Below are positions 1,389-63,238 of a DNA stretch of 64,000 nt, piece by piece (position 1 is the first letter of the stretch; each line of letters starts with the position of its first letter). Origin of the DNA: a virus; the IMG/VR virus record IMGVR_UViG_3300009509_000006, positions 1-64,000 of that record; one strand, written 5' to 3'. The position numbers and the translations under genes are program-made. A model generated the notes under the pieces. It worked only from the letters and a program-made list of their open reading frames with translations. It made no database searches and was not told the DNA's origin.

Positions 1389-1706
1389 TCAGGATACGAC
1401 GGCCTTCTTGACACCGTTGCCGAGAGCGGCGTCCTTTCCAGTCTTCGCACCGACGATCCTACGCTTGAGCGGGTCGGCGTTTGTCTTGTAGTGGAAGACC
1501 ATGCTCTTCGTCACGCCCGTGCCCTTCAGAACGGGGGTACCGCCCTTCATGCCCGCGACCACGAAGCGCTTGCCGCCGACACCGGCCTTGCTTTGGCGCG
1601 CGAAGCTCAGGAACACCGATTGGCCCTTCTTGGCGCTCTTGAGAGTAGCCAGCACAGGGTCCTTACCCTCAAGCAACAGGCGCCCTTCCTGGATCATATT
1701 CCTCAT
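1389..1706 (-). CDS. Basic (Lys-rich) putative internal head protein with leader MRNMIQEGRLLLE
   Basis: GAGG RBS; leader shared with genes starting at 4848, 58637, 58902 and 59849. Confidence 0.75.
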   Translation of the reverse strand: MRNMIQEGRLLLEGKDPVLATLKSAKKGQSVFLSFARQSKAGVGGKRFVVAGMKGGTPVLKGTGVTKSMVFHYKTNADPLKRRIVGAKTGKDAALGNGVKKAVVS

Positions 1707-4422: not shown

Positions 4423-4848
4423 TCAGCGTTCGCGCCAGGCTTTGTCGACAAGCTCCGGGATCTTCTTCATCCGGATCTTGTTCACGGCGTCTTTGAGCCC
4501 TGCATTCGACAGCAGTGCGAGCAAATGTCGCATCACCTCGGGGGCGTTGTACTTGTTGAACGCCGGGGTCTTCGGTTTGCGCTCCAGGAGTGCTCTTGCC
4601 GCGGCCATGGGATCCACGCTCTCGGCTTTCGGAGGCTGCCCGGGCTCTTTCTCGTTCGCTGGTTTTCCGTCCTTGTCTTGCGGGGGCGGGGGTGGCGGGG
4701 TCTCGCCTTTGGGGATCTTGTAGCGCTTTCTGAGCTTCGGGACGATACTCCGGATCACGTCGATTGGCGTCTCGGGCACTTTGGGCTGCTGCTCCGCGTC
4801 TTGCTCCCTGGCGAGCAGCAGTTGTGCCTCATCGATCAGGTCTCGCAT
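4423..4848 (-). CDS. Putative internal head protein with leader MRDLIDEAQLLLA
   Basis: GGAGG RBS; shared leader; Pro/Lys-rich. Confidence 0.75.
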   Translation of the reverse strand: MRDLIDEAQLLLAREQDAEQQPKVPETPIDVIRSIVPKLRKRYKIPKGETPPPPPPQDKDGKPANEKEPGQPPKAESVDPMAAARALLERKPKTPAFNKYNAPEVMRHLLALLSNAGLKDAVNKIRMKKIPELVDKAWRER

Positions 4849-56229: not shown

Positions 56230-56979
56230 TCACCCCGTGATGAAGGGCATTGGCATGCCCGCCTTGATGATGTCCTCGTCGAGCGTCCGCATCTCTTCCT
56301 GCCCTTCCGAGAGAATGTCGCGGCCATCGAGCTGGCGCTCGCCTTGTGCTCCAGGGAAACCGGCGTACTTGGATCGTATCCGGCCCACGAGGATCTTCGC
56401 GTTGGCGAGCATGTGGCGCCTCACCAGCTGGTGGTCGAAGTGCCGGAGCTCAGTGAACGCGATCGAGGCGCTGCTGTAGACGAGCATCATCTGGCCTGAG
56501 GTGCGCGGCGCCGGGCTCAGGATCACCTTGCGCGTGTACTCGTCCCAAATCCAGTTTGCATCCGCCGACATCACCCGCTTCGCCATCTCTGTGTACTGGA
56601 TTGCCTGCGCCAGGCTCGAGTACAGCCCCGCCGACTCGGGGGCTGCGAAGACGTCGTAGGGGATCTTCTCGTCTGCCAGGATGTAGGGCGAGAACACCAT
56701 CGTGAAGTCGTGCGGTGCCGAAGGCAAGAGCACCTCTACAACATCGTCGCAGTCGTCCGGCACATCGTACTCGACAACATTGGTAGCCACATCGATCAGT
56801 CGGTATCGCGCCACGCCCTTCTTCGAGATGAACCAGTCCTTCGCGTCCTCGACGAGGTCATCGAGGTGCGCGGGGTGTAGCTCCACTTTGAGGATTGGAG
56901 CGCCAAGACGACGGAGCACCCACTTCTGGAGTTGCTCTTCGTCCATGACAATCTGGCGAGAGCGGGCCGAATAGGTCAT
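56230..56979 (-). CDS. Neck/head-tail adaptor (gp13-like)
   Basis: WVLRRLGAPILKVEL…LANAKILVGRIRSKY…PG…LDGRDILSEG…MPFITG. Confidence 0.88.
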   Translation of the reverse strand: MTYSARSRQIVMDEEQLQKWVLRRLGAPILKVELHPAHLDDLVEDAKDWFISKKGVARYRLIDVATNVVEYDVPDDCDDVVEVLLPSAPHDFTMVFSPYILADEKIPYDVFAAPESAGLYSSLAQAIQYTEMAKRVMSADANWIWDEYTRKVILSPAPRTSGQMMLVYSSASIAFTELRHFDHQLVRRHMLANAKILVGRIRSKYAGFPGAQGERQLDGRDILSEGQEEMRTLDEDIIKAGMPMPFITG

Positions 56980-58112: not shown

Positions 58113-58637
58113 CTACTTCCCAGGAAACTCCTTCTTGAGCTTCGATTCCACAGCCTTGTTCCACGACTTGAGCTTCGGGCCCTCCCACCAGCGCGACGCC
58201 GCGGCGCCGACAGCCGCAGCGCCTCCCCAGAAGGGGTCGTACCGCCCGTACAGCTGCTTCGTGTCCGAGATCTTTGCGCTGGCGTGCCCAACGAGGTGTC
58301 GAGCGTTGACGAGCTCCGGTGGAAGGATCATGAGGAGGCCTTCCTTCCTGAGCATCTCAACAGTGAAGTCCGTACCCTTGAGCATTCCTCGGGCGTCGTC
58401 CATCGCGCTTTTGCCAATGTCGAATCCCTGCTCGCGCGTCAGGTACTTGCGCCCGTAGGCAACGCCCTTCTTCCACTGGGCCTCGGCAAACTTCGATCCG
58501 GACAAGGATTTGCCGAATTTGTCCTTGTAGCCCATGAAGGGCTTCTTCCACTCTTCGTGTGGGACAGGAGGATCGGGAAATTGCGCCTCAAGCTTGCCCT
58601 CGAGCAGGTCCCGGCCCTCTTGGATGAAACGTCGCAC
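58113..58637 (-). CDS. Putative internal head protein with leader MRRFIQEGRDLLE
   Basis: Shared leader; Lys/Trp-rich. Confidence 0.8.
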   Translation of the reverse strand: MRRFIQEGRDLLEGKLEAQFPDPPVPHEEWKKPFMGYKDKFGKSLSGSKFAEAQWKKGVAYGRKYLTREQGFDIGKSAMDDARGMLKGTDFTVEMLRKEGLLMILPPELVNARHLVGHASAKISDTKQLYGRYDPFWGGAAAVGAAASRWWEGPKLKSWNKAVESKLKKEFPGK

Positions 58638-58638
58638 A

Positions 58639-58902
58639 TCAGCCCCCTACTTCCTTGAGCTTCGCGGCCACTTCGGGGTCCTTGCCCCAGCGCTTCCTGA
58701 CAGCCGCCTTCACGGCAGGGTAGTCACTGGAGTCACCACGCTTCGCCTGGATGTAGGCGAGAGCGCGGATCGCGTGCTCCTGGTCATGGATCGGCCACCC
58801 CTTGCGCTCGGGGAAGACGAATGACGACTTTTTCATGCGCTCGCGCTTCCCTGGCGTGATCTCGTCGAGCAGCGCACGTCCTTCTTCGATCAGGTCTCGC
58901 AT
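58639..58902 (-). CDS. Putative internal head protein with leader MRDLIEEGRALLDE and DUF6582-like domain
   Basis: Start ATG 58902 overlaps the upstream TGA; SSFVFPERKGWPIHDQEHAIRALAY. Confidence 0.8.
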   Translation of the reverse strand: MRDLIEEGRALLDEITPGKRERMKKSSFVFPERKGWPIHDQEHAIRALAYIQAKRGDSSDYPAVKAAVRKRWGKDPEVAAKLKEVGG

Positions 58903-59849
58903 CACACAACTCCCATGTCCTGGAGCACAGTGACCACACCCTTCTTGATGCGGTTCTGGCTCTTTGGCGTGAGGTGTTTCTTGATCTCGCGCCATGTGTT
59001 GGATTGCCCGAGCAGAAACGTCACCGCCTTGCTCTGCGGCCACGCTACGAGTTTCGCTCTGTGCGCGCCAACCAGGTCCCGAACCTGCGCGGAAATCTCC
59101 TGCATGTAGGCCTTCACCTCTTCGGGCGAGTTGTAGTAGCGAGCCTGGCGCTCCTTCGCCTTGGCCTTCGCCTGAGCTCGCTGCTCTTTCGGACTGTCCG
59201 GCGGATGCAATCCCACCTTCGTGAGGGTCATCTTCAGCCGCTCAGTTGAGTCGCCGATCCCGAGCTCTTTTCGCTTCCGGGCGATCAGTCGGTGCGAGAC
59301 CTCGCCATAGCCAGCTGCCTTCAAAATCTGCGAGATCTGCCTATCCGAGAAGGGATGAACAGGGTTCTCCTGCTGGAGCAGCGCTACGATGTGACGCTCC
59401 AGGCTCTTCTTTCGCAGCACGTCCTTGGCGTGGGTGATCTCGTGCATGAGGGCGTACTTCATGGCGCCCTGAATGCTCGACATCTCGGTCCCACGCAAGA
59501 GCGGCACGAGCTCGCCGGCACCGAGATTTCCGTTCAGCATCATGTTGATGATTCGCTCTTTCGGCGCGTAGACGGCACCCAGAAAGAGCCCGCGCACGCC
59601 GGGCCTCTTGACGCTGATCACCGAGACCGGAATCTCGCGCTTCTTGCCCTTGACATCGGACACAGTGATCTTCTCGGTGGCCCACAGCTTGTCGCCGATC
59701 GGCTTGGTCGGTTGCACCCTCGCCATGCTCTGGAGCGCGGGCACGAACTGGCCCATGAGCCGCTTGACGAGCATCGTAACGACTTGGTCAGGCAGCTTGA
59801 TCGGGCGGGCTTCGAGGAGCTTGTGCCCTTCCGTGATCAGGTCTCGCAT
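58902..59849 (-). CDS. Putative internal head protein: leader MRDLITEGHKLLE, HEXXH zincin-like domain, inserted sigma-54 C-terminal DNA-binding-like domain
   Basis: LMHEITH…YYNSPEEVKAY; ENPVHPFSDRQISQILKAAGYGEVSHRLIARKRKELGIGDSTERLK. Confidence 0.8.
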   Translation of the reverse strand: MRDLITEGHKLLEARPIKLPDQVVTMLVKRLMGQFVPALQSMARVQPTKPIGDKLWATEKITVSDVKGKKREIPVSVISVKRPGVRGLFLGAVYAPKERIINMMLNGNLGAGELVPLLRGTEMSSIQGAMKYALMHEITHAKDVLRKKSLERHIVALLQQENPVHPFSDRQISQILKAAGYGEVSHRLIARKRKELGIGDSTERLKMTLTKVGLHPPDSPKEQRAQAKAKAKERQARYYNSPEEVKAYMQEISAQVRDLVGAHRAKLVAWPQSKAVTFLLGQSNTWREIKKHLTPKSQNRIKKGVVTVLQDMGVV

Positions 59850-59858
59850 GGCTACCTC

Positions 59859-59897
59859 AAACAGAAAGGCCGCCCACCCAGATCGGGGGAGCGGCCC
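59859..59897 (-). terminator. Intrinsic terminator after the major capsid gene
   Basis: GGCCGCTCCCCC-GATCT-GGGTGGGCGGCC stem followed by TTTCTGTTT. Confidence 0.75.
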
Positions 59898-59938: not shown

Positions 59939-61435
59939 TCAGATGTTGAGCACGCGGACCTGCCCGTAGTATTCGGCCCGAAGCAGCTTCTTCGCGTAGC
60001 GGGTACGCAGACCCTTACGGAAGCTCATGTCATTCGGATCCAAAAAGGTGGGCGTCACCTGCAACGGGACGTAGGGGGCCCAGACGAACCCGGCGTCCAA
60101 GTACGAGCCGCCCTTGAGGCCCAGCATCGCGAAGTCGGACGCGAAGAACGGGTCGACGTAGACGACCCACTTCCGCATCAGGGTGCCGGCCTTGTAGACG
60201 CCGAACTGGCCGTGCTGCGTCAGGGGGCGCGGCATGTCGGCCGGTCCGAGCGGGCTCTCGCCGCCGCTCACCCAGATCGGGCGGTAGTCGCCGTGAGTGG
60301 TCAGCTGCTCCATCAGAGCGCTGATCTCGGGCGAGGTCACAATCCAGTTCGCGGGCGCACGCAGGGTCCGCTTGTGGATCGAGTTCGACACCTGGGACAG
60401 CACGGTGACGAGCGACCGGAGGTGATCGATCTCGGCGATGCCGCTGGGCGGGATCCGATCGAAGGTTCCACCGCTCCCGGTCGAGGCCAGGAACAGGTCC
60501 TGGATGATCTCCCGGTCGATCTCGAGCGCCATCTCGCTCGCCGCTGCAGCGACCAGCTCCGTCTCGGCTTCGAGCCCCTGCAGGTTGCGCAGGTCCTCAG
60601 CCGCTTCCGAGCTCCAGAGAGCCTTGAGACGACGCGGGACCGCCTCGATGACGGCTTTCTTCACGTCGAGCTGCACTTCGGGCAGCTTGGTGTTGAGCTC
60701 GCCGTCGTAGCTGTAGTACATCTTGATCTGGTGGCCAGCCACGGGGTCGACGGCGAAACGCACACCCGCCAGGGCACCATTCGAGTAGTTCAGGGTGCCG
60801 GCGGTGAGATCGGTGCTGGTGTCCGCGGCACCACTCGCCAGGAACTTGCCCTCCTGAATCACGGACCCGGCCGCATCGAGGTCGCGGATGATCACGTCAT
60901 AACCGCGATCGGTACTCGGCTTGTGCACCGGAGTGAGAGCCAGATTCACACTGATCGGCACACCACTGGGACCGTAGTCCGAGCCGGTACCGGTGGCGAG
61001 GATTTCACCATTCACGAACTCCGAGCTGTAGTAGCGGTCGAAGTCGCGCGGGAACACGTCGCCGCGAGTCGTTTCCCCCTTGGTCGTACCGTAGACATAG
61101 TCCAGGTAGAACACGGCGCCCTGCGGCGCGGTCATGGGCTGCACCGAGACGATCTCGTTCACGATCAAGTTCGGGAACACACGGCTGAGCACCGGGAACA
61201 CGAATTTCGTGAAGTAGCCCACATTGATGGCCCTCGTCTCTTCGTTCATGCTACGAAGGTGACGGGCCTGGTTCTCGTAGAGCATCGCCATGCAGCCCCG
61301 AATGTAGCGCTCGTGGCGACAGCGATCCGGCATCCCTTCCAGAAGGGGTGCCCACTTCTCCACGTATGCGCCGACGAGACGGCGGTCGGCGATGGTGCCA
61401 CTGCTATCTTCGATCACAACTCGACGAGCTTCCAC
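59939..61435 (-). CDS. gp23: Major capsid protein, T4 gp23 family
   Basis: KWAPLLEG…ENQ, RVFPNL…IVSVQPMTAP…FYL, RRLKALWS…EIDREII, GFVWAPYVPL…KGLRTRY; GGAGG RBS. Confidence 0.98.
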   Translation of the reverse strand: MEARRVVIEDSSGTIADRRLVGAYVEKWAPLLEGMPDRCRHERYIRGCMAMLYENQARHLRSMNEETRAINVGYFTKFVFPVLSRVFPNLIVNEIVSVQPMTAPQGAVFYLDYVYGTTKGETTRGDVFPRDFDRYYSSEFVNGEILATGTGSDYGPSGVPISVNLALTPVHKPSTDRGYDVIIRDLDAAGSVIQEGKFLASGAADTSTDLTAGTLNYSNGALAGVRFAVDPVAGHQIKMYYSYDGELNTKLPEVQLDVKKAVIEAVPRRLKALWSSEAAEDLRNLQGLEAETELVAAAASEMALEIDREIIQDLFLASTGSGGTFDRIPPSGIAEIDHLRSLVTVLSQVSNSIHKRTLRAPANWIVTSPEISALMEQLTTHGDYRPIWVSGGESPLGPADMPRPLTQHGQFGVYKAGTLMRKWVVYVDPFFASDFAMLGLKGGSYLDAGFVWAPYVPLQVTPTFLDPNDMSFRKGLRTRYAKKLLRAEYYGQVRVLNI

Positions 61436-61466: not shown

Positions 61467-63017
61467 TCAATCCGCTCCAGGCGGCATCAACTCCTTCAGG
61501 GCTCCGAGGCCAACACCGAGACCATTGAAATCGGTGTCCTCACTGAGTGCTCTCCTGACAGGCGTATCCGGCCAGGGCTCCTCCTCGTCGAACGGTGTGT
61601 GTCCGACTCCGCCCCCCAATTGACGGCGAATCCGCGAAACCGTGGATTCGATGGCCTCCAGCGAACGCTTCGGAGGCCGGAACTGCTCGATGATCGAGTC
61701 GACGTCTTCGCGAGACGACAGGGCCGATCGGTCGAACACTTCCCTGATCTGCTTGGCCCTCGGGTGCTTGCCGATACGTCTCTCCCCGTACAGCTGAAGG
61801 CCCGTGATGTGCAGTGCTTCGGCAGACTTGTGTAGCGCGGTCTCCAGGTCGCGCACACGGTCGTGCAGCTGCTCGAACTGAGCTTCGGCGCGCTCGGTGA
61901 GCTCGCGGTGTTGCTCCTGCGCCTGTTCCTCCTCCAGACGCAGCTCTTCGAGATGCTCTTGCACAGAGGCGAGCTTCGACTGGAAGTCCGCCTCGGATTC
62001 GAACCGCGAGAGGTCTCCGACCAGTTGCCGCACACGCTCGGCATCCGGGTTCTGGTGCAACTCTCGCTCCATGTACCAGGCGAACCCGGCCACCTGGGCC
62101 AGAGTCACCAGCTTCTCGTTCTCTTCCTCGAGTTCGGCCACGCGGGCACGCACCTTGTCTCTCGACTCTCGCAGCCGAGCGATCTCTTCGTCTCTGCGCT
62201 CCAGGGCTTCGCGGGCTTCTCCGGATCGCATGAAAGGCGCGAGAGCCTCTCGGATCACGTGGAAGGCCTCGACCTTCTGGAGCGTCTCGTCGCTGCGCAG
62301 CTCGGCCCGGACGTCCGCCTCGACGACCGTGCGCAGCTCGGACATTCGCGTCAGGATGTCCGTGGCGATCTCGGCATTCATGTCGGGATCGCCCGAAGCG
62401 TTCTCTTCGGGAAGGAACTCGTCCCCTTCCGGGAACTCGATACCTTCGAACAGGAGCATGCTGTCAAGGTCGACACTCTCGCCGACCATTGTCGGGTAGG
62501 CGGTCTGATCCGCGGGGTCGGCAACGAAGTCGAATGCGATGAGCTTGTAGTCCTCCTGGACCACGTTCTCGCCGAACTCGTTTGGCTTCGTCGTCCCGTA
62601 GCCTCGGGACGAGATTCCGACCTTGCCTCCCTCACGCAGGATGGCTGCGAGATCCTTGCCCGCCGCCGTACCGAGGATCTGCGCCTCGCCGTACACGACA
62701 TCGTCGCGGACCTCGAGCTTCGTGATCAGGTGGCTTGCCCTGGACAGCTTCGTTTTGCCGTCTTCTGGATGATCGAGCTCGCCGTAGCACTTTCGCTCAG
62801 CAAGGCGCGGCAACAGGCGCTTGATCTCCCGCTCCCACAGAGCCTTTGGGTAGACGCGCTTATTTTCGGTCGGGATACCGGCGCGGGCGAACTCACCGCG
62901 CATGAAAAGACGCTTCGTTGCCACGTCTTCGACGAGCTCGAGCTCGGTCCCCTCGATCCACTCGATGAGATGATTGAGGTCGCCGACCTTCGTGTCTTCT
63001 GTGAGCTGCTTCGTCAT
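61467..63017 (-). CDS. gp21: Prohead protease (T4 gp21 type) fused to a scaffold-like coiled coil
   Basis: NKRVYP, GELDHP, SHLI, GISSRGYG, FDFVADP; Glu-rich heptads; start reassigned to ATG 63017 (MTKQLTE) in a TGATG overlap. Confidence 0.93.
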   Translation of the reverse strand: MTKQLTEDTKVGDLNHLIEWIEGTELELVEDVATKRLFMRGEFARAGIPTENKRVYPKALWEREIKRLLPRLAERKCYGELDHPEDGKTKLSRASHLITKLEVRDDVVYGEAQILGTAAGKDLAAILREGGKVGISSRGYGTTKPNEFGENVVQEDYKLIAFDFVADPADQTAYPTMVGESVDLDSMLLFEGIEFPEGDEFLPEENASGDPDMNAEIATDILTRMSELRTVVEADVRAELRSDETLQKVEAFHVIREALAPFMRSGEAREALERRDEEIARLRESRDKVRARVAELEEENEKLVTLAQVAGFAWYMERELHQNPDAERVRQLVGDLSRFESEADFQSKLASVQEHLEELRLEEEQAQEQHRELTERAEAQFEQLHDRVRDLETALHKSAEALHITGLQLYGERRIGKHPRAKQIREVFDRSALSSREDVDSIIEQFRPPKRSLEAIESTVSRIRRQLGGGVGHTPFDEEEPWPDTPVRRALSEDTDFNGLGVGLGALKELMPPGAD

Positions 63018-63238
63018 CAGTACCGCCGCCATCGAAACTGACCCCGTAGCGGGGTCCTATCCAGGAGACCGGGCTTCTTGCGAACAACCCGGGACTTGCG
63101 CTGTGTGGCCTTCTGGTAGTTGAAAGCGTCTCTCCTCCCACTCGAGGTGGACACGCGGCGTCCCCGCGTCGAATGCGAGAGCGTAGGCCTTGTCGGTTTG
63201 ATTCGCCGGCGCGCTACGATCCCGCGGTTCCGCCTCAG
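63017..63238 (-). CDS. Arg-rich 73-aa ORF without canonical start (CTG start or -1 frameshift extension); absent from the ORF track
   Basis: LRRNRGIVARRRIKPTRPTLSHSTRGRRVSTSSGRRDAFNYQKATQRKSRVVRKKPGLLDRTPLRGQFRWRRY*; CTGA overlap upstream, TGATG overlap downstream. Confidence 0.6.
   Translation of the reverse strand: MRRNRGIVARRRIKPTRPTLSHSTRGRRVSTSSGRRDAFNYQKATQRKSRVVRKKPGLLDRTPLRGQFRWRRY

Follow-up and report, generated by a model that had tools for sequence, protein, structure and literature searches.

What does a DNA-binding domain of the sigma-54 type do inside a phage protein that carries a metallopeptidase-like HExxH motif? The question is raised by a gene for a 315-aa protein (taken from the list of open reading frames) in the head region of an uncultured, T4-like phage. 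The analysed DNA, here called the window, is a stretch of 64,000 nucleotides, namely positions 1 to 64,000 of the IMG/VR record IMGVR_UViG_3300009509_000006, which in full is 98 kb long. An original prediction, made from the window's letters alone, saw in the protein either an injected DNA-targeted protease or a sigma-54 mimic that acts on sigma-54 promoters. The protease part of this prediction is plausible, but the mimicry part, a block of -24/-12 promoters, is unsupported in the form given. Our preferred reading, to which we assign a probability of about one half, is a packaged and co-ejected zincin that docks on DNA and is functionally ArdC-like.

Gene and domain arrangement

The features of the gene and of its surroundings are collected in Table 1. 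The start ATG of the gene is preceded by GAGG 6 nt upstream, and the AlphaFold2 (AF2) model of the protein has a pLDDT of 90.7 and a pTM of 0.80. The N-terminal half is modelled with helices at residues 21-45 and 126-144 and strands at 54-64, 70-80, 89-95 and 100-106. The linker behind the inserted domain contains a helix (220-239) and has seven Lys or Arg among its 28 residues.

Table 1. Features of the zincin-like gene and of related genes, in coordinates of the whole window
Feature	Coordinates	Strand	Remarks
Whole zincin-like gene	58902..59849	-	Order: leader, N-terminal zincin-like half, RpoN insert, basic linker, Glu helix, C-terminal helical bundle
13-residue leader MRDLITEGHKLLE	59811..59849	-	I-T-E is residues 6-8, L-L-E is residues 11-13
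N-terminal half of zincin-like domain, residues 14-146	59412..59810	-	Long helix, four strands, active-site helix
HEITH, residues 136-140	59430..59444	-	H136, E137 and H140 are the predicted zinc ligands and catalytic base
Inserted RpoN-type three-helix HTH domain, residues 147-211	59217..59411	-	Pfam match covers residues 140-204
RpoN-box-equivalent helix SHRLIARKRK	59268..59297	-	phmmer alignment to 2ahq/2o8k
Basic Lys/Arg/Ala-rich linker helix, residues 212-239	59133..59216	-	Leads the chain back to the catalytic domain
YYNSPEE motif and C-terminal helical bundle	58905..59132	-	N240, E244 and A247 invariant; W286 nearly invariant
gp23-type major capsid protein	59939..61435	-	Pfam Gp23 E 6e-64; phrog_138
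S77 (T4 gp21-type) prohead protease with long site-rich C-terminal region	61467..63032	-	Peptidase_S77 E 5.7e-16; phrog_207 E 1.8e-45
GC-rich hairpin, then UUUCUGUUU	59858..59897	-	In the 89-nt spacer between capsid and zincin genes; fold prediction
Second leader-bearing gene, 87 aa, basic	58639..58902	-	Weak DUF6582 and phrog_16160 matches
Third leader-bearing gene, 174 aa, GTG start, basic	58113..58637	-	No known family
Distant leader-bearing gene, 141 aa, basic	4423..4848	-	No known family
Distant leader-bearing gene, 105 aa, pI 11	1389..1706	-	No known family

Identity of the inserted domain

The domain that interrupts the zincin-like part of the protein is a true RpoN-type domain. The Pfam profile Sigma54_DBD (PF04552, with a curated gathering cut-off of 22.8 bits) matches it with 34.2 bits (E 2.6e-8) at profile positions 94-158 of 160, and the match was found again in a six-frame search of the genome (34.8 bits). 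A phmmer search of PDB sequences returned sigma-54 chains only, the best being the Aquifex RpoN domain (2ahq/2o8k, E 1.5e-4). Foldseek with the AF2 model likewise placed 2o8k, a sigma-54 RpoN domain in complex with -24 DNA, at the top of the PDB (probability 1.00, TM by target 0.61, 36% identity), and this is the best structural match of the insert. Sigma-54 chains (5ui5, 8re4) were aligned with the insert by VIA over 50-51 residues (rmsd 1.9, 29-36% identity) at a Z of 4.9, a value that is by itself not distinctive for a small HTH domain. We also weighed, and rejected, a generic HTH of the transposase or homeodomain kind as the identity of the insert: HTH_32 reaches E 0.09, as against 2.6e-8 for Sigma54_DBD. 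The sigma-54 DNA-binding-like domain that the original prediction had noticed is therefore real, and the stretch in question (IVALLQQ...ERLK) corresponds to residues 154-206 (nt 59232-59390).

The recognition helix was suspected to be altered, and the phmmer alignment to 2ahq/2o8k upholds this, with SHRLIARKRK standing opposite ARRTVAKYRE. The window protein retains R456, A459 and R462 at the equivalent positions and has I and R in place of V458 and K460, respectively. The protein lacks the canonical RpoN box with both R455 and R456, as R455 is replaced by H; the equivalents of T457 and Y461 are replaced as well. All four insert-bearing proteins conserve the equivalents of R456, A459, K460 (as K or R) and R462, and have H, F, H or P in place of R455. 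In E. coli sigma-54, R455A or R456A abolishes binding to the -24 element (PMC7175178), and R456 determines the preference for GG (PMC12096077).

Only about 65 positions at the end of the profile are matched, and neither the activator-interacting region of sigma-54 nor its core-binding domain or ELH-HTH is present. The Pfam search gave no match to PF00309 or PF04963 in the window protein, and the 98-kb record has no bEBP (PF00158). The insert is 44% identical to a repeat of a multi-HTH protein that is not a sigma-54, as against 29-36% to the sigma-54 chains compared.

Insertion into a viral HExxH family

Insert aside, the window protein is a member of an unnamed family whose proteins measure about 245 aa and are almost all viral; the family is found mostly on large viral contigs (150-485 kb) of large and jumbo phages. 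The RpoN domain is inserted into this conserved HExxH family, as was originally proposed. Homologue matches span residues ~10-149 and ~235-315. The spacer between HExxH and YYNxPxE has 15-46 residues (mode 26) in about 140 family domains and 64 in one; a pattern scan found spacers of 92-97 residues only in the window protein and two close relatives, and a fourth insert-bearing protein, P0004, has a derived spacer of ~102. Since a spacer of 92-102 residues is confined to the window protein and these three relatives, the RpoN domain is an insertion. Sigma54_DBD matches are obtained in exactly four of the 104 family members.

The RpoN insert is retained in a homologue that is only 36% identical overall. 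A recent capture of the insert from a host gene was rejected because its GC and GC3 match the remainder of the gene. At the same loop a 64-residue Lys/Arg-rich insert is present in P0098, which belongs to the same well-supported clade.

A word-indexed search with the insert alone returned only the window protein and one close relative, and a metagenome scan found the known relative again and nothing further. P0004 and P0079 are absent from IMG/VR, and tblastn of the window protein against 50,697 GenBank phage records gave no match. Scans of bacterial genome contigs provide no host clue, because they yielded nothing for the insert-bearing clade and only two short MAG contigs for the base family. 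The suggestion of a myxobacterial host is not supported.

Catalytic motifs and predicted fold

H136, E137, H140 and E244 are invariant in the 104 sequences, in which the mean column identity is 12%. Three RpoN-repeat proteins apart, almost every one of the ~150 listed matches has an HExxH, and D143, three residues past HEITH, is shared by at least 90% of family alignment A3. All insert-bearing proteins have HExxH, D143 and E244 intact. The AF2 model predicts the order helix, beta-sheet, HExxH helix, Glu helix, in which HEITH sits in helix 126-144 and E244, the predicted third zinc ligand, at the start of helix 242-269. The window protein is probably a zincin-like metallopeptidase.

In Pfam searches with the window protein or the family, matches to peptidase families all stay below the respective cut-offs. 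The peptidase matches below threshold are all to zincins among the families listed (for the 104 members, the first 25 of 46). Peptidase_M91 (9/104, best E 0.003) is the commonest sub-threshold family overall among these, followed by Zincin_1 (3/104); further matches are to M90, M48 and Tox-MPTase2. The family profile had no match among PDB sequences, and Foldseek against the PDB found no zincin fold at E <= 0.001. The best peptidase fold matches, PprI (8sln, Z 4.6-4.7 over 98 residues) and CapP (7t5t, Z 4.5), fall in the noise range, and no convincing peptidase fold was obtained from PDB Foldseek and VIA wide (the full model and an insert-less paralog model) or from BFVD (full model only). The same domain also occurs inside large polyvalent proteins of 735-2646 aa, which possess two to four HExxH motifs and in some cases SprT-like or M91-like modules.

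Head module and leader

The gene stands directly after the capsid gene, as first noted, and its position in the head module together with its leader is in agreement with a role as cargo. The 13-residue leader is common to five genes of the window whose products are otherwise unrelated, and it did not arise in any of 20 triplet shuffles. It ends in I-x-E and L-x-E, which are sites of the T4 prohead-protease type, and the family homology begins at ARPI, directly past it. The five leader-bearing proteins have a pI of 9.7-11.0, and only 20% of the ~80 predicted proteins have a pI above 9.6. Beyond the leader the zincin has just two L/I/M-x-E sites, at residues 137 (inside HExxH) and 251 (just past YYNSPEE), both within predicted helices of the AF2 model. 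Such sites cluster in the first 66 residues of the major capsid protein (33, 54, 65), and the product of the prohead protease gene has 19 of them. The ATG of the neighbouring 87-aa gene overlaps the zincin stop codon as TGATG. The hairpin upstream of the zincin gene may be a leaky terminator; it was not among the calls of a simple terminator scan.

We read the leader, by analogy with T4, as a capsid-targeting propeptide that the prohead protease would cut off. In T4 itself, Alt is cleaved at ITE-6 (PMC5694885), and a capsid targeting sequence is the sole common feature of the T4 internal proteins (PMC5694885, PMC3012670). In the related phage L002, five leader-bearing genes lie between the genes for the major capsid protein and the neck, and only the zincin is common with the window. 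This turnover of putative cargo resembles the hypervariable internal-protein loci of T4 (PMC3012670), and by the same analogy the gene set matches the T4 internal-protein pattern. In more distant phages no recognisable capsid gene visibly adjoins the family locus, and tblastn with the capsid protein, protease and neck proteins of the window gave no matches in these loci. Gp23 searches of these distant records are uninformative, as control genomes gave no match either.

Proposed role and alternative explanations

In our preferred reading, the leader would direct the zincin into the prohead core, where the T4-type prohead protease would trim it after E13 and/or E8, as happens with Alt and the internal proteins of T4. 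After maturation, the basic zincin would enter the host together with the DNA. The RpoN-type HTH, placed in the loop that connects the HExxH helix to the third-ligand helix and predicted to lie beside the substrate cleft, would dock the enzyme on duplex DNA, probably with a sequence preference other than the canonical TGGCAC. The peptidase would attack proteins on or nearing the DNA at the start of infection, for example those of host defence or of the nucleoid, and might be activated by DNA. The arrangement points to a protease that acts while bound to DNA. We counted against this reading that the R455 equivalent is not conserved, that the peptidase fold matches lie in the noise range, that peptidase matches in Pfam remain below threshold, and that the family in more distant phages has no recognisable capsid gene visibly beside it; the peptidase could also serve self-processing and not host attack (PMC5512222).

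Mimicry of sigma-54 would mean that the insert binds the canonical -24 element (TGGCAC) and either competes with the holoenzyme or recruits the peptidase to sigma-54, its activators or RNAP at such promoters, which would shut off the sigma-54-dependent responses of the host. The identity of the insert as a true RpoN domain, the ability of the isolated Aquifex RpoN domain to bind -24 DNA alone (PDB 2o8k) and the retention in all four proteins of the GG-setting R456 equivalent (PMC12096077), and likewise of A459, K460 (K/R) and R462, all speak for such binding. However, R455A alone abolishes -24 binding (PMC7175178), and the equivalent residue is H, F, H or P. The replaced T457 and Y461, the absence of the core-binding domain and of the -12-reading ELH-HTH, and the closer similarity of the insert to a non-sigma-54 RpoN-like repeat likewise argue against mimicry, which we consider quite unlikely. 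It is similarly improbable that a captured sigma-54 domain addresses an injected peptidase to -24-type elements, where the holoenzyme or its activators would be removed or the site occluded. If true, this would switch off stress and defence responses that depend on sigma-54 while the infection is only minutes old, and the phage would be the first virus to target the sigma-54 regulon by mimicking the DNA-reading module of the sigma factor itself. We also considered whether the phage genome carries or avoids -24/-12 sites and rejected this, as the counts equal expectation (TGGCAC-N5-TTGC with one mismatch, 3 vs 3.5 expected; TGGCAC, 45 vs 44.9).

The protein might instead perform housekeeping inside the head, with the HTH and basic linker binding the packaged phage DNA (for anchoring, condensation or ejection) and the peptidase trimming co-packaged cargo or itself. 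All leader-bearing proteins are basic, like the DNA-embedded internal proteins of T4 (PMC3012670), the Lys/Arg-rich insert of P0098 suggests selection for a general affinity to nucleic acids, and autoprocessing is the favoured role of the metallopeptidases (MPTases) in polyvalent proteins (PMC5512222). Yet a folded, sequence-reading HTH that is kept down to 36% overall identity exceeds what charge neutralisation needs, and TGGCAC-type words are neither enriched nor avoided in the phage genome. A single-domain protein moreover offers no polyprotein to process, and the S77 protease already accounts for removal of the leader, so that we regard housekeeping as a tentative and rather unlikely explanation. 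The chance is slim that the protein stays unpackaged and acts late, in the cytoplasm, as a regulatory protease of the ImmA/IrrE/CapP type; its DNA module and zincin would then together sense DNA and cleave a regulator. The DNA-activated zincins PprI and CapP are the sole peptidases in the VIA lists, and an IrrE N-terminal-like phage protein is among the weak BFVD rows, but PprI and CapP score within the noise range, and there is no Peptidase_M78 match among the Pfam families listed. The position in the head module, the common leader and the translational coupling with leader-bearing genes favour packaging. Least credible is a catalytically dead scaffold, in which the HExxH fold would be structural and the protein purely a DNA-binding factor: the family has no characterised member, but the invariance of H136, E137, H140 and E244 over such diverged sequences is typical of selection on catalysis.

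Implications

The RpoN domain counts as a sigma-54 hallmark, and here it separates the two predicted catalytic helices of a conserved zincin-like protein of viruses; we found no description in the literature of an RpoN domain in a phage protein or within an enzyme. RpoN-like HTH modules thus circulate outside sigma factors. If our preferred reading of a packaged, DNA-docked zincin holds, the protein would be a compact natural DNA-addressed protease that is delivered with the viral genome, a phage counterpart of ArdC, and would give a first functional handle on the unnamed zincin family of large viral contigs and polyvalent proteins. The portable 13-residue leader would then mark ejected cargo in a deep-branching T4-like lineage, and would allow the injected proteins of that lineage to be listed from sequence alone.

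Comparison with known systems

With the RpoN domain of sigma-54 (PF04552; 2o8k, 2ahq, 5ui5) the insert shares the three-helix HTH, the P-[FL]-S-D motif, the frame of the recognition helix and the L-G-I tail. It differs in standing alone, without the other sigma-54 regions, in a box altered at the equivalents of R455, T457, Y461 and E463, and in being embedded within an enzyme, whereas the sigma-54 copy is C-terminal. SprT/Spartan/Wss1, IrrE/PprI and CapP are metalloproteases with an activity tied to DNA binding; their DNA-binding parts are of other folds and are not known to lie between the HExxH and Glu helices. The concept of a DNA-tied metalloprotease is common to these DNA-dependent zincins and the window protein, and weak fold matches to PprI and CapP exist, but no significant match to them was obtained in sequence or structure.

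T4 IPI-III and Alt offer a close model for the leader. Here as there, unrelated basic proteins have only a short N-terminal leader ending in I/L-x-E in common, gp23-type capsid and gp21-type protease genes are present, and the gene content is hypervariable among relatives (PMC3012670, PMC5694885). The leader sequence of the window proteins is a different one, packaging is predicted, and the cargo is a predicted enzyme with a putative DNA-reading domain.

The claim that no equivalent had been described was too strong, as a DNA-binding module and a zincin are combined in two described analogues that travel with DNA, namely ArdC and the polyvalent-protein MPTases (PMC7213743, PMC5512222). The polyvalent-protein MPTases (Iyer, Burroughs, Anand, de Souza and Aravind 2017, PMC5512222) have an HExxH helix and a Glu helix with variable inserts between them, carry an Asp three residues past HExxH, and reside in head-associated proteins that are delivered together with DNA. 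The window family, too, occurs inside multi-HExxH proteins of 1000-2600 aa, whereas the window protein itself stands alone with 315 aa and a T4-style leader. The phage-type MPTase variant combines this Asp with a conserved His at the end of strand 2 (PMC5512222); D143 is present in at least 90% of alignment A3, and there is no conserved His among the invariant or nearly invariant columns. Pfam MPTase-PolyVal is not among the families listed (in the 104-member search, the first 25 of 46), and RpoN or sigma-54 domains have no occurrence in PMC5512222.

ArdC (R388/pSa) consists of an ssDNA-binding domain and a C-terminal metalloprotease and overcomes the restriction of the recipient (PMC7213743). 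We found no sequence homology to ArdC and no ArdC-related Pfam match in the window protein, and consider ArdC an analogue only. Its ssDNA-binding fold (ArdC-N) is separate and N-terminal and its vehicle is conjugation, whereas the window protein has an HTH of the dsDNA type inside the catalytic domain and the capsid as its predicted vehicle. The likeness lies in the joining of a DNA-binding module to a zincin, which in the window protein, as in ArdC, would serve incoming foreign DNA at its first moments in a new cell.

The phage head module

The IMG/VR virus record of which the window forms the initial 64 kb (98 kb in all; 57% complete by CheckV estimate) has a GC content of about 62% across the whole window and carries on its minus strand, at window 56-64 kb, a T4-type head module. 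Its capsid protein shares no more than 35% identity with any of the 2,406 GenBank phage records that it matches, which indicates a deep-branching lineage. The prohead protease joins its S77 domain (residues ~40-185) to a Glu-rich region of ~330 residues with 19 [L/I/M]-x-E sites and weak, sub-threshold matches to helical families, and the product looks like a protease-scaffold fusion. The zincin gene stands directly after the capsid gene, as the original prediction had it; the 89 nt between them contain a GC-rich hairpin with a U-tract, and also a GAGG ribosome-binding site. The hairpin was not reported by a simple terminator scan; it may be a leaky terminator, lowering cargo expression relative to the capsid.

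Features of the window phage and of the related phage L002
Feature	Position	Strand
S77 (gp21-type) prohead protease with long C-terminal extension	61467-63032	-
gp23-type major capsid protein	59939-61435	-
GC-rich hairpin, then UUUCUGUUU, between capsid and cargo genes	59858-59897	-
Zincin ORF (315 aa)	58902-59849	-
Leader-bearing neighbour (87 aa)	58639-58902	-
Starts of the four further leader-bearing genes	58902; 58637 (GTG); 4848; 1706	-
Head-tail adaptor	56230-56979	-
LAGLIDADG-type homing endonuclease gene	L002:5319-6161	+
158-aa ORF in cargo cassette	L002:9010-9486	+

An RpoN-type domain inserted in a zincin-like protein

The sigma-54 RpoN-type domain in the zincin is real. Residues 140-204 match positions 94-158 of the 160 in the Pfam Sigma54_DBD profile (E 2.6e-8; 34.2 bits, the curated cut-off being 22.8 bits), and a PDB sequence search retrieves hardly anything but sigma-54 chains, led by the Aquifex RpoN domain (E 1.5e-4) in an alignment that takes in the recognition helix as well as the P-x-S-D motif and L-G-I tail. 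The insert forms three helices (147-159, 169-181 and 186-195) in an AF2 model built from 104 homologs (pLDDT 90.7, pTM 0.80), for which Foldseek ranks first the RpoN domain solved by NMR on -24 DNA (probability 1.00, 36% identity); a VIA structure search gives sigma-54 chains at Z 4.9 and rmsd 1.9. The predicted sigma-54 DNA-binding-like domain is confirmed by both the profile and the model.

That it is an insertion, as likewise predicted, is evident from its relatives: 217 were recovered at E <= 0.001 when 1.84 billion cluster representatives were searched exhaustively with HMMER. Most have 230-290 aa and align to the query over two stretches, residues ~10-149 and ~235-315; HE-x-T/S-H is present in nearly all. 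Across 104 aligned sequences, whose mean column identity is 12%, H136, E137, H140, N240, E244 and A247 do not vary. The spacer that separates HExxH from Y-Y-N-x-P-x-E has a mode of 26 residues (range 15-46) in ~140 domain instances, and a pattern scan found spacers of 92-97 only in the query and two relatives of 66-67% identity. P0004, a 36% identical relative, also has the insert (derived spacer ~102) with a weaker Sigma54_DBD match. Exactly 4 of the 104 aligned members match this profile. In a quick ML tree, these four fall into one clade with two insert-less proteins and P0098 (SH-aLRT 96), compatible with either a single or a multiple origin of the insert. L002 encodes an insert-bearing zincin and the insert-less paralog P0005 tail to tail. 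Recent capture is ruled out, as GC and GC3 of the insert equal those of the rest of the gene. P0098, whose spacer is 64, has a Lys/Arg-rich insert of 64 residues in the same loop between the HExxH and Glu helices, which may be a hot spot for gaining nucleic-acid-binding segments.

The model runs from a long helix through a four-stranded sheet, the HExxH helix and the insert to a helix opening with the invariant Glu, and the zincin core has the same element order, with variable inserts between the HExxH and Glu helices (Iyer et al., PMC5512222). D143 is the Asp three residues past HExxH, as in the phage-type zincin variant of the same survey. No Pfam peptidase family exceeds its threshold in the zincin or its family; those named below threshold across the 104 members are all zincins, most often Peptidase_M91 (9 members), then Zincin_1 (3), and also M90, M48 and Tox-MPTase2. 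The same domain occurs within polyvalent proteins of 735-2646 aa; these have two to four HExxH motifs, and some also SprT-like or M91-like modules. At two viral loci (L017 and L009) a giant protein of this kind is encoded immediately upstream of a few genes, the last of which is a probable head maturation protease; in L009 a portal-like gene additionally precedes it. Neither the full model nor that of the insert-less paralog (pLDDT 84.3) yielded a convincing peptidase fold match in structure searches, the sole peptidases listed being PprI (Z 4.6-4.7) and CapP (Z 4.5), both DNA-activated zincins and both within the noise range. Strong motifs together with weak fold matches lead us to call the host domain zincin-like.

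Leader and cargo cassette

The first 13 residues of the zincin recur as a leader on four further window genes with otherwise unrelated products, a pattern that had no occurrence in 20 triplet shuffles. The leader contains I-T-E and L-L-E; T4 gp21 cuts the Alt N-terminus at ITE-6, and all T4 internal proteins have a short common N-terminal sequence which targets them to the core and is then taken off by gp21 (PMC5694885, PMC3012670). Family homology starts exactly past the leader, at A-R-P-I, and the junction [L/I/V]-x-E-[A/T]-R-[P/A]-I, found in 17 domain instances, is always within 40 residues of the N-terminus and does not occur in the interior of polyvalent proteins. Outside the leader, [L/I/M]-x-E sites of the zincin are confined to 137 (in HExxH) and 251 (just past the Glu motif), both within predicted helices; in the capsid protein they are ~5 times denser in the first 66 residues than in the rest, with one at residue 65. 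All five leader proteins have a pI of 9.7-11.0, in a proteome (~80 predicted proteins) with a median of 5.7 and 20% above 9.6. The zincin stop overlaps the start of the next cargo gene (TGATG). For the small, basic 87-aa neighbour there is a match to phrog_16160 (E 5e-8) and a sub-threshold one to DUF6582.

The capsid protein of L002 is 75% identical to that of the window, and its capsid-to-neck cassette comprises five leader-bearing genes, the zincin being the only one in common. The 158-aa ORF of this cassette, 39% identical to major capsid protein residues 134-244, represents a free-standing copy of a portion of that protein. A homing endonuclease gene directly follows the capsid gene in L002, and none does in the window.

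Possible function

Judged from sequence, the zincin is predicted to be packaged in the head. The leader would direct it there and the prohead protease would trim it; the basic product would exit together with the DNA, the inserted HTH would dock it on duplex DNA beside its own active-site cleft, and it would cleave DNA-associated proteins early in infection, possibly upon DNA-dependent activation. We give this joint reading a probability of about one half. Leader, head-module position and RpoN insert of the predicted injected, DNA-targeted protease are observed, while packaging, ejection, DNA binding and cleavage are what we infer from them. With the same leader and basic charge, the protein could instead organise packaged DNA or process other cargo, for which we see a distinctly smaller chance.

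The originally predicted mimicry of sigma-54 at its promoters appears unlikely. SHRLIARKRK aligns (phmmer) with A454-E463 of E. coli sigma-54, and the helix is indeed altered, with H for R455. Mimicry would agree with the R456 equivalent, which sets the GG preference and is re-codable to other dinucleotides (PMC12096077), being invariant in the four insert-bearing proteins; the A459, K460 (as K/R) and R462 equivalents are also retained. However, these proteins have H, F, H or P at the R455 position, and R455A and R456A each abolish -24 binding (PMC7175178). Moreover, Pfam detects the RpoN domain alone, without the -12-reading ELH-HTH, core-binding domain or region I, and the insert is closer to one repeat of P0079 (44% identity) than to Aquifex (36%) or E. 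coli (~30%) sigma-54. P0079 is a 278-aa protein with three RpoN-like repeats (three Sigma54_DBD stretches in Pfam); P0067 has seven such stretches and P0080 six matched by phmmer. These repeats imply that RpoN-like HTH modules with variable recognition helices exist outside sigma factors, a pool that may be the source of the phage insert. All three proteins are metagenomic; the N-termini of P0067 and P0080 are signal-peptide or lipoprotein-like, and one source annotates P0079 as 'sigma54-like'. We know of no described family of tandem RpoN-like HTH repeat proteins. In the phage genome, sigma-54-type promoters are not above chance (3 versus 3.5 expected), TGGCAC is unbiased, and no bEBP is encoded in the 98-kb record. 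A non-packaged regulatory protease like IrrE or CapP seems slightly less probable still, and a dead enzyme very improbable.

The most under-represented words of the 98-kb genome (Markov expectation) include palindromic hexamers (AGTACT 6 versus 30.5 expected, TCCGGA 60 versus 102, AGATCT 40 versus 73, ACATGT 6 versus 23; also CTGCAG and CGGCCG), which looks like restriction-site avoidance.

Comparison with known systems

The original view that no equivalent has been described goes too far: our literature search turned up no account of a Sigma54_DBD/RpoN domain within an enzyme or in any phage protein, and the polyvalent-protein survey (PMC5512222) does not mention it, but DNA-binding modules coupled to a zincin and brought in with invading DNA are already known as a general theme. 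The cargo cassette is hypervariable between the window phage and L002, as are T4 internal-protein loci, and the logic of the proposed zincin model resembles that of ArdC (PMC7213743).
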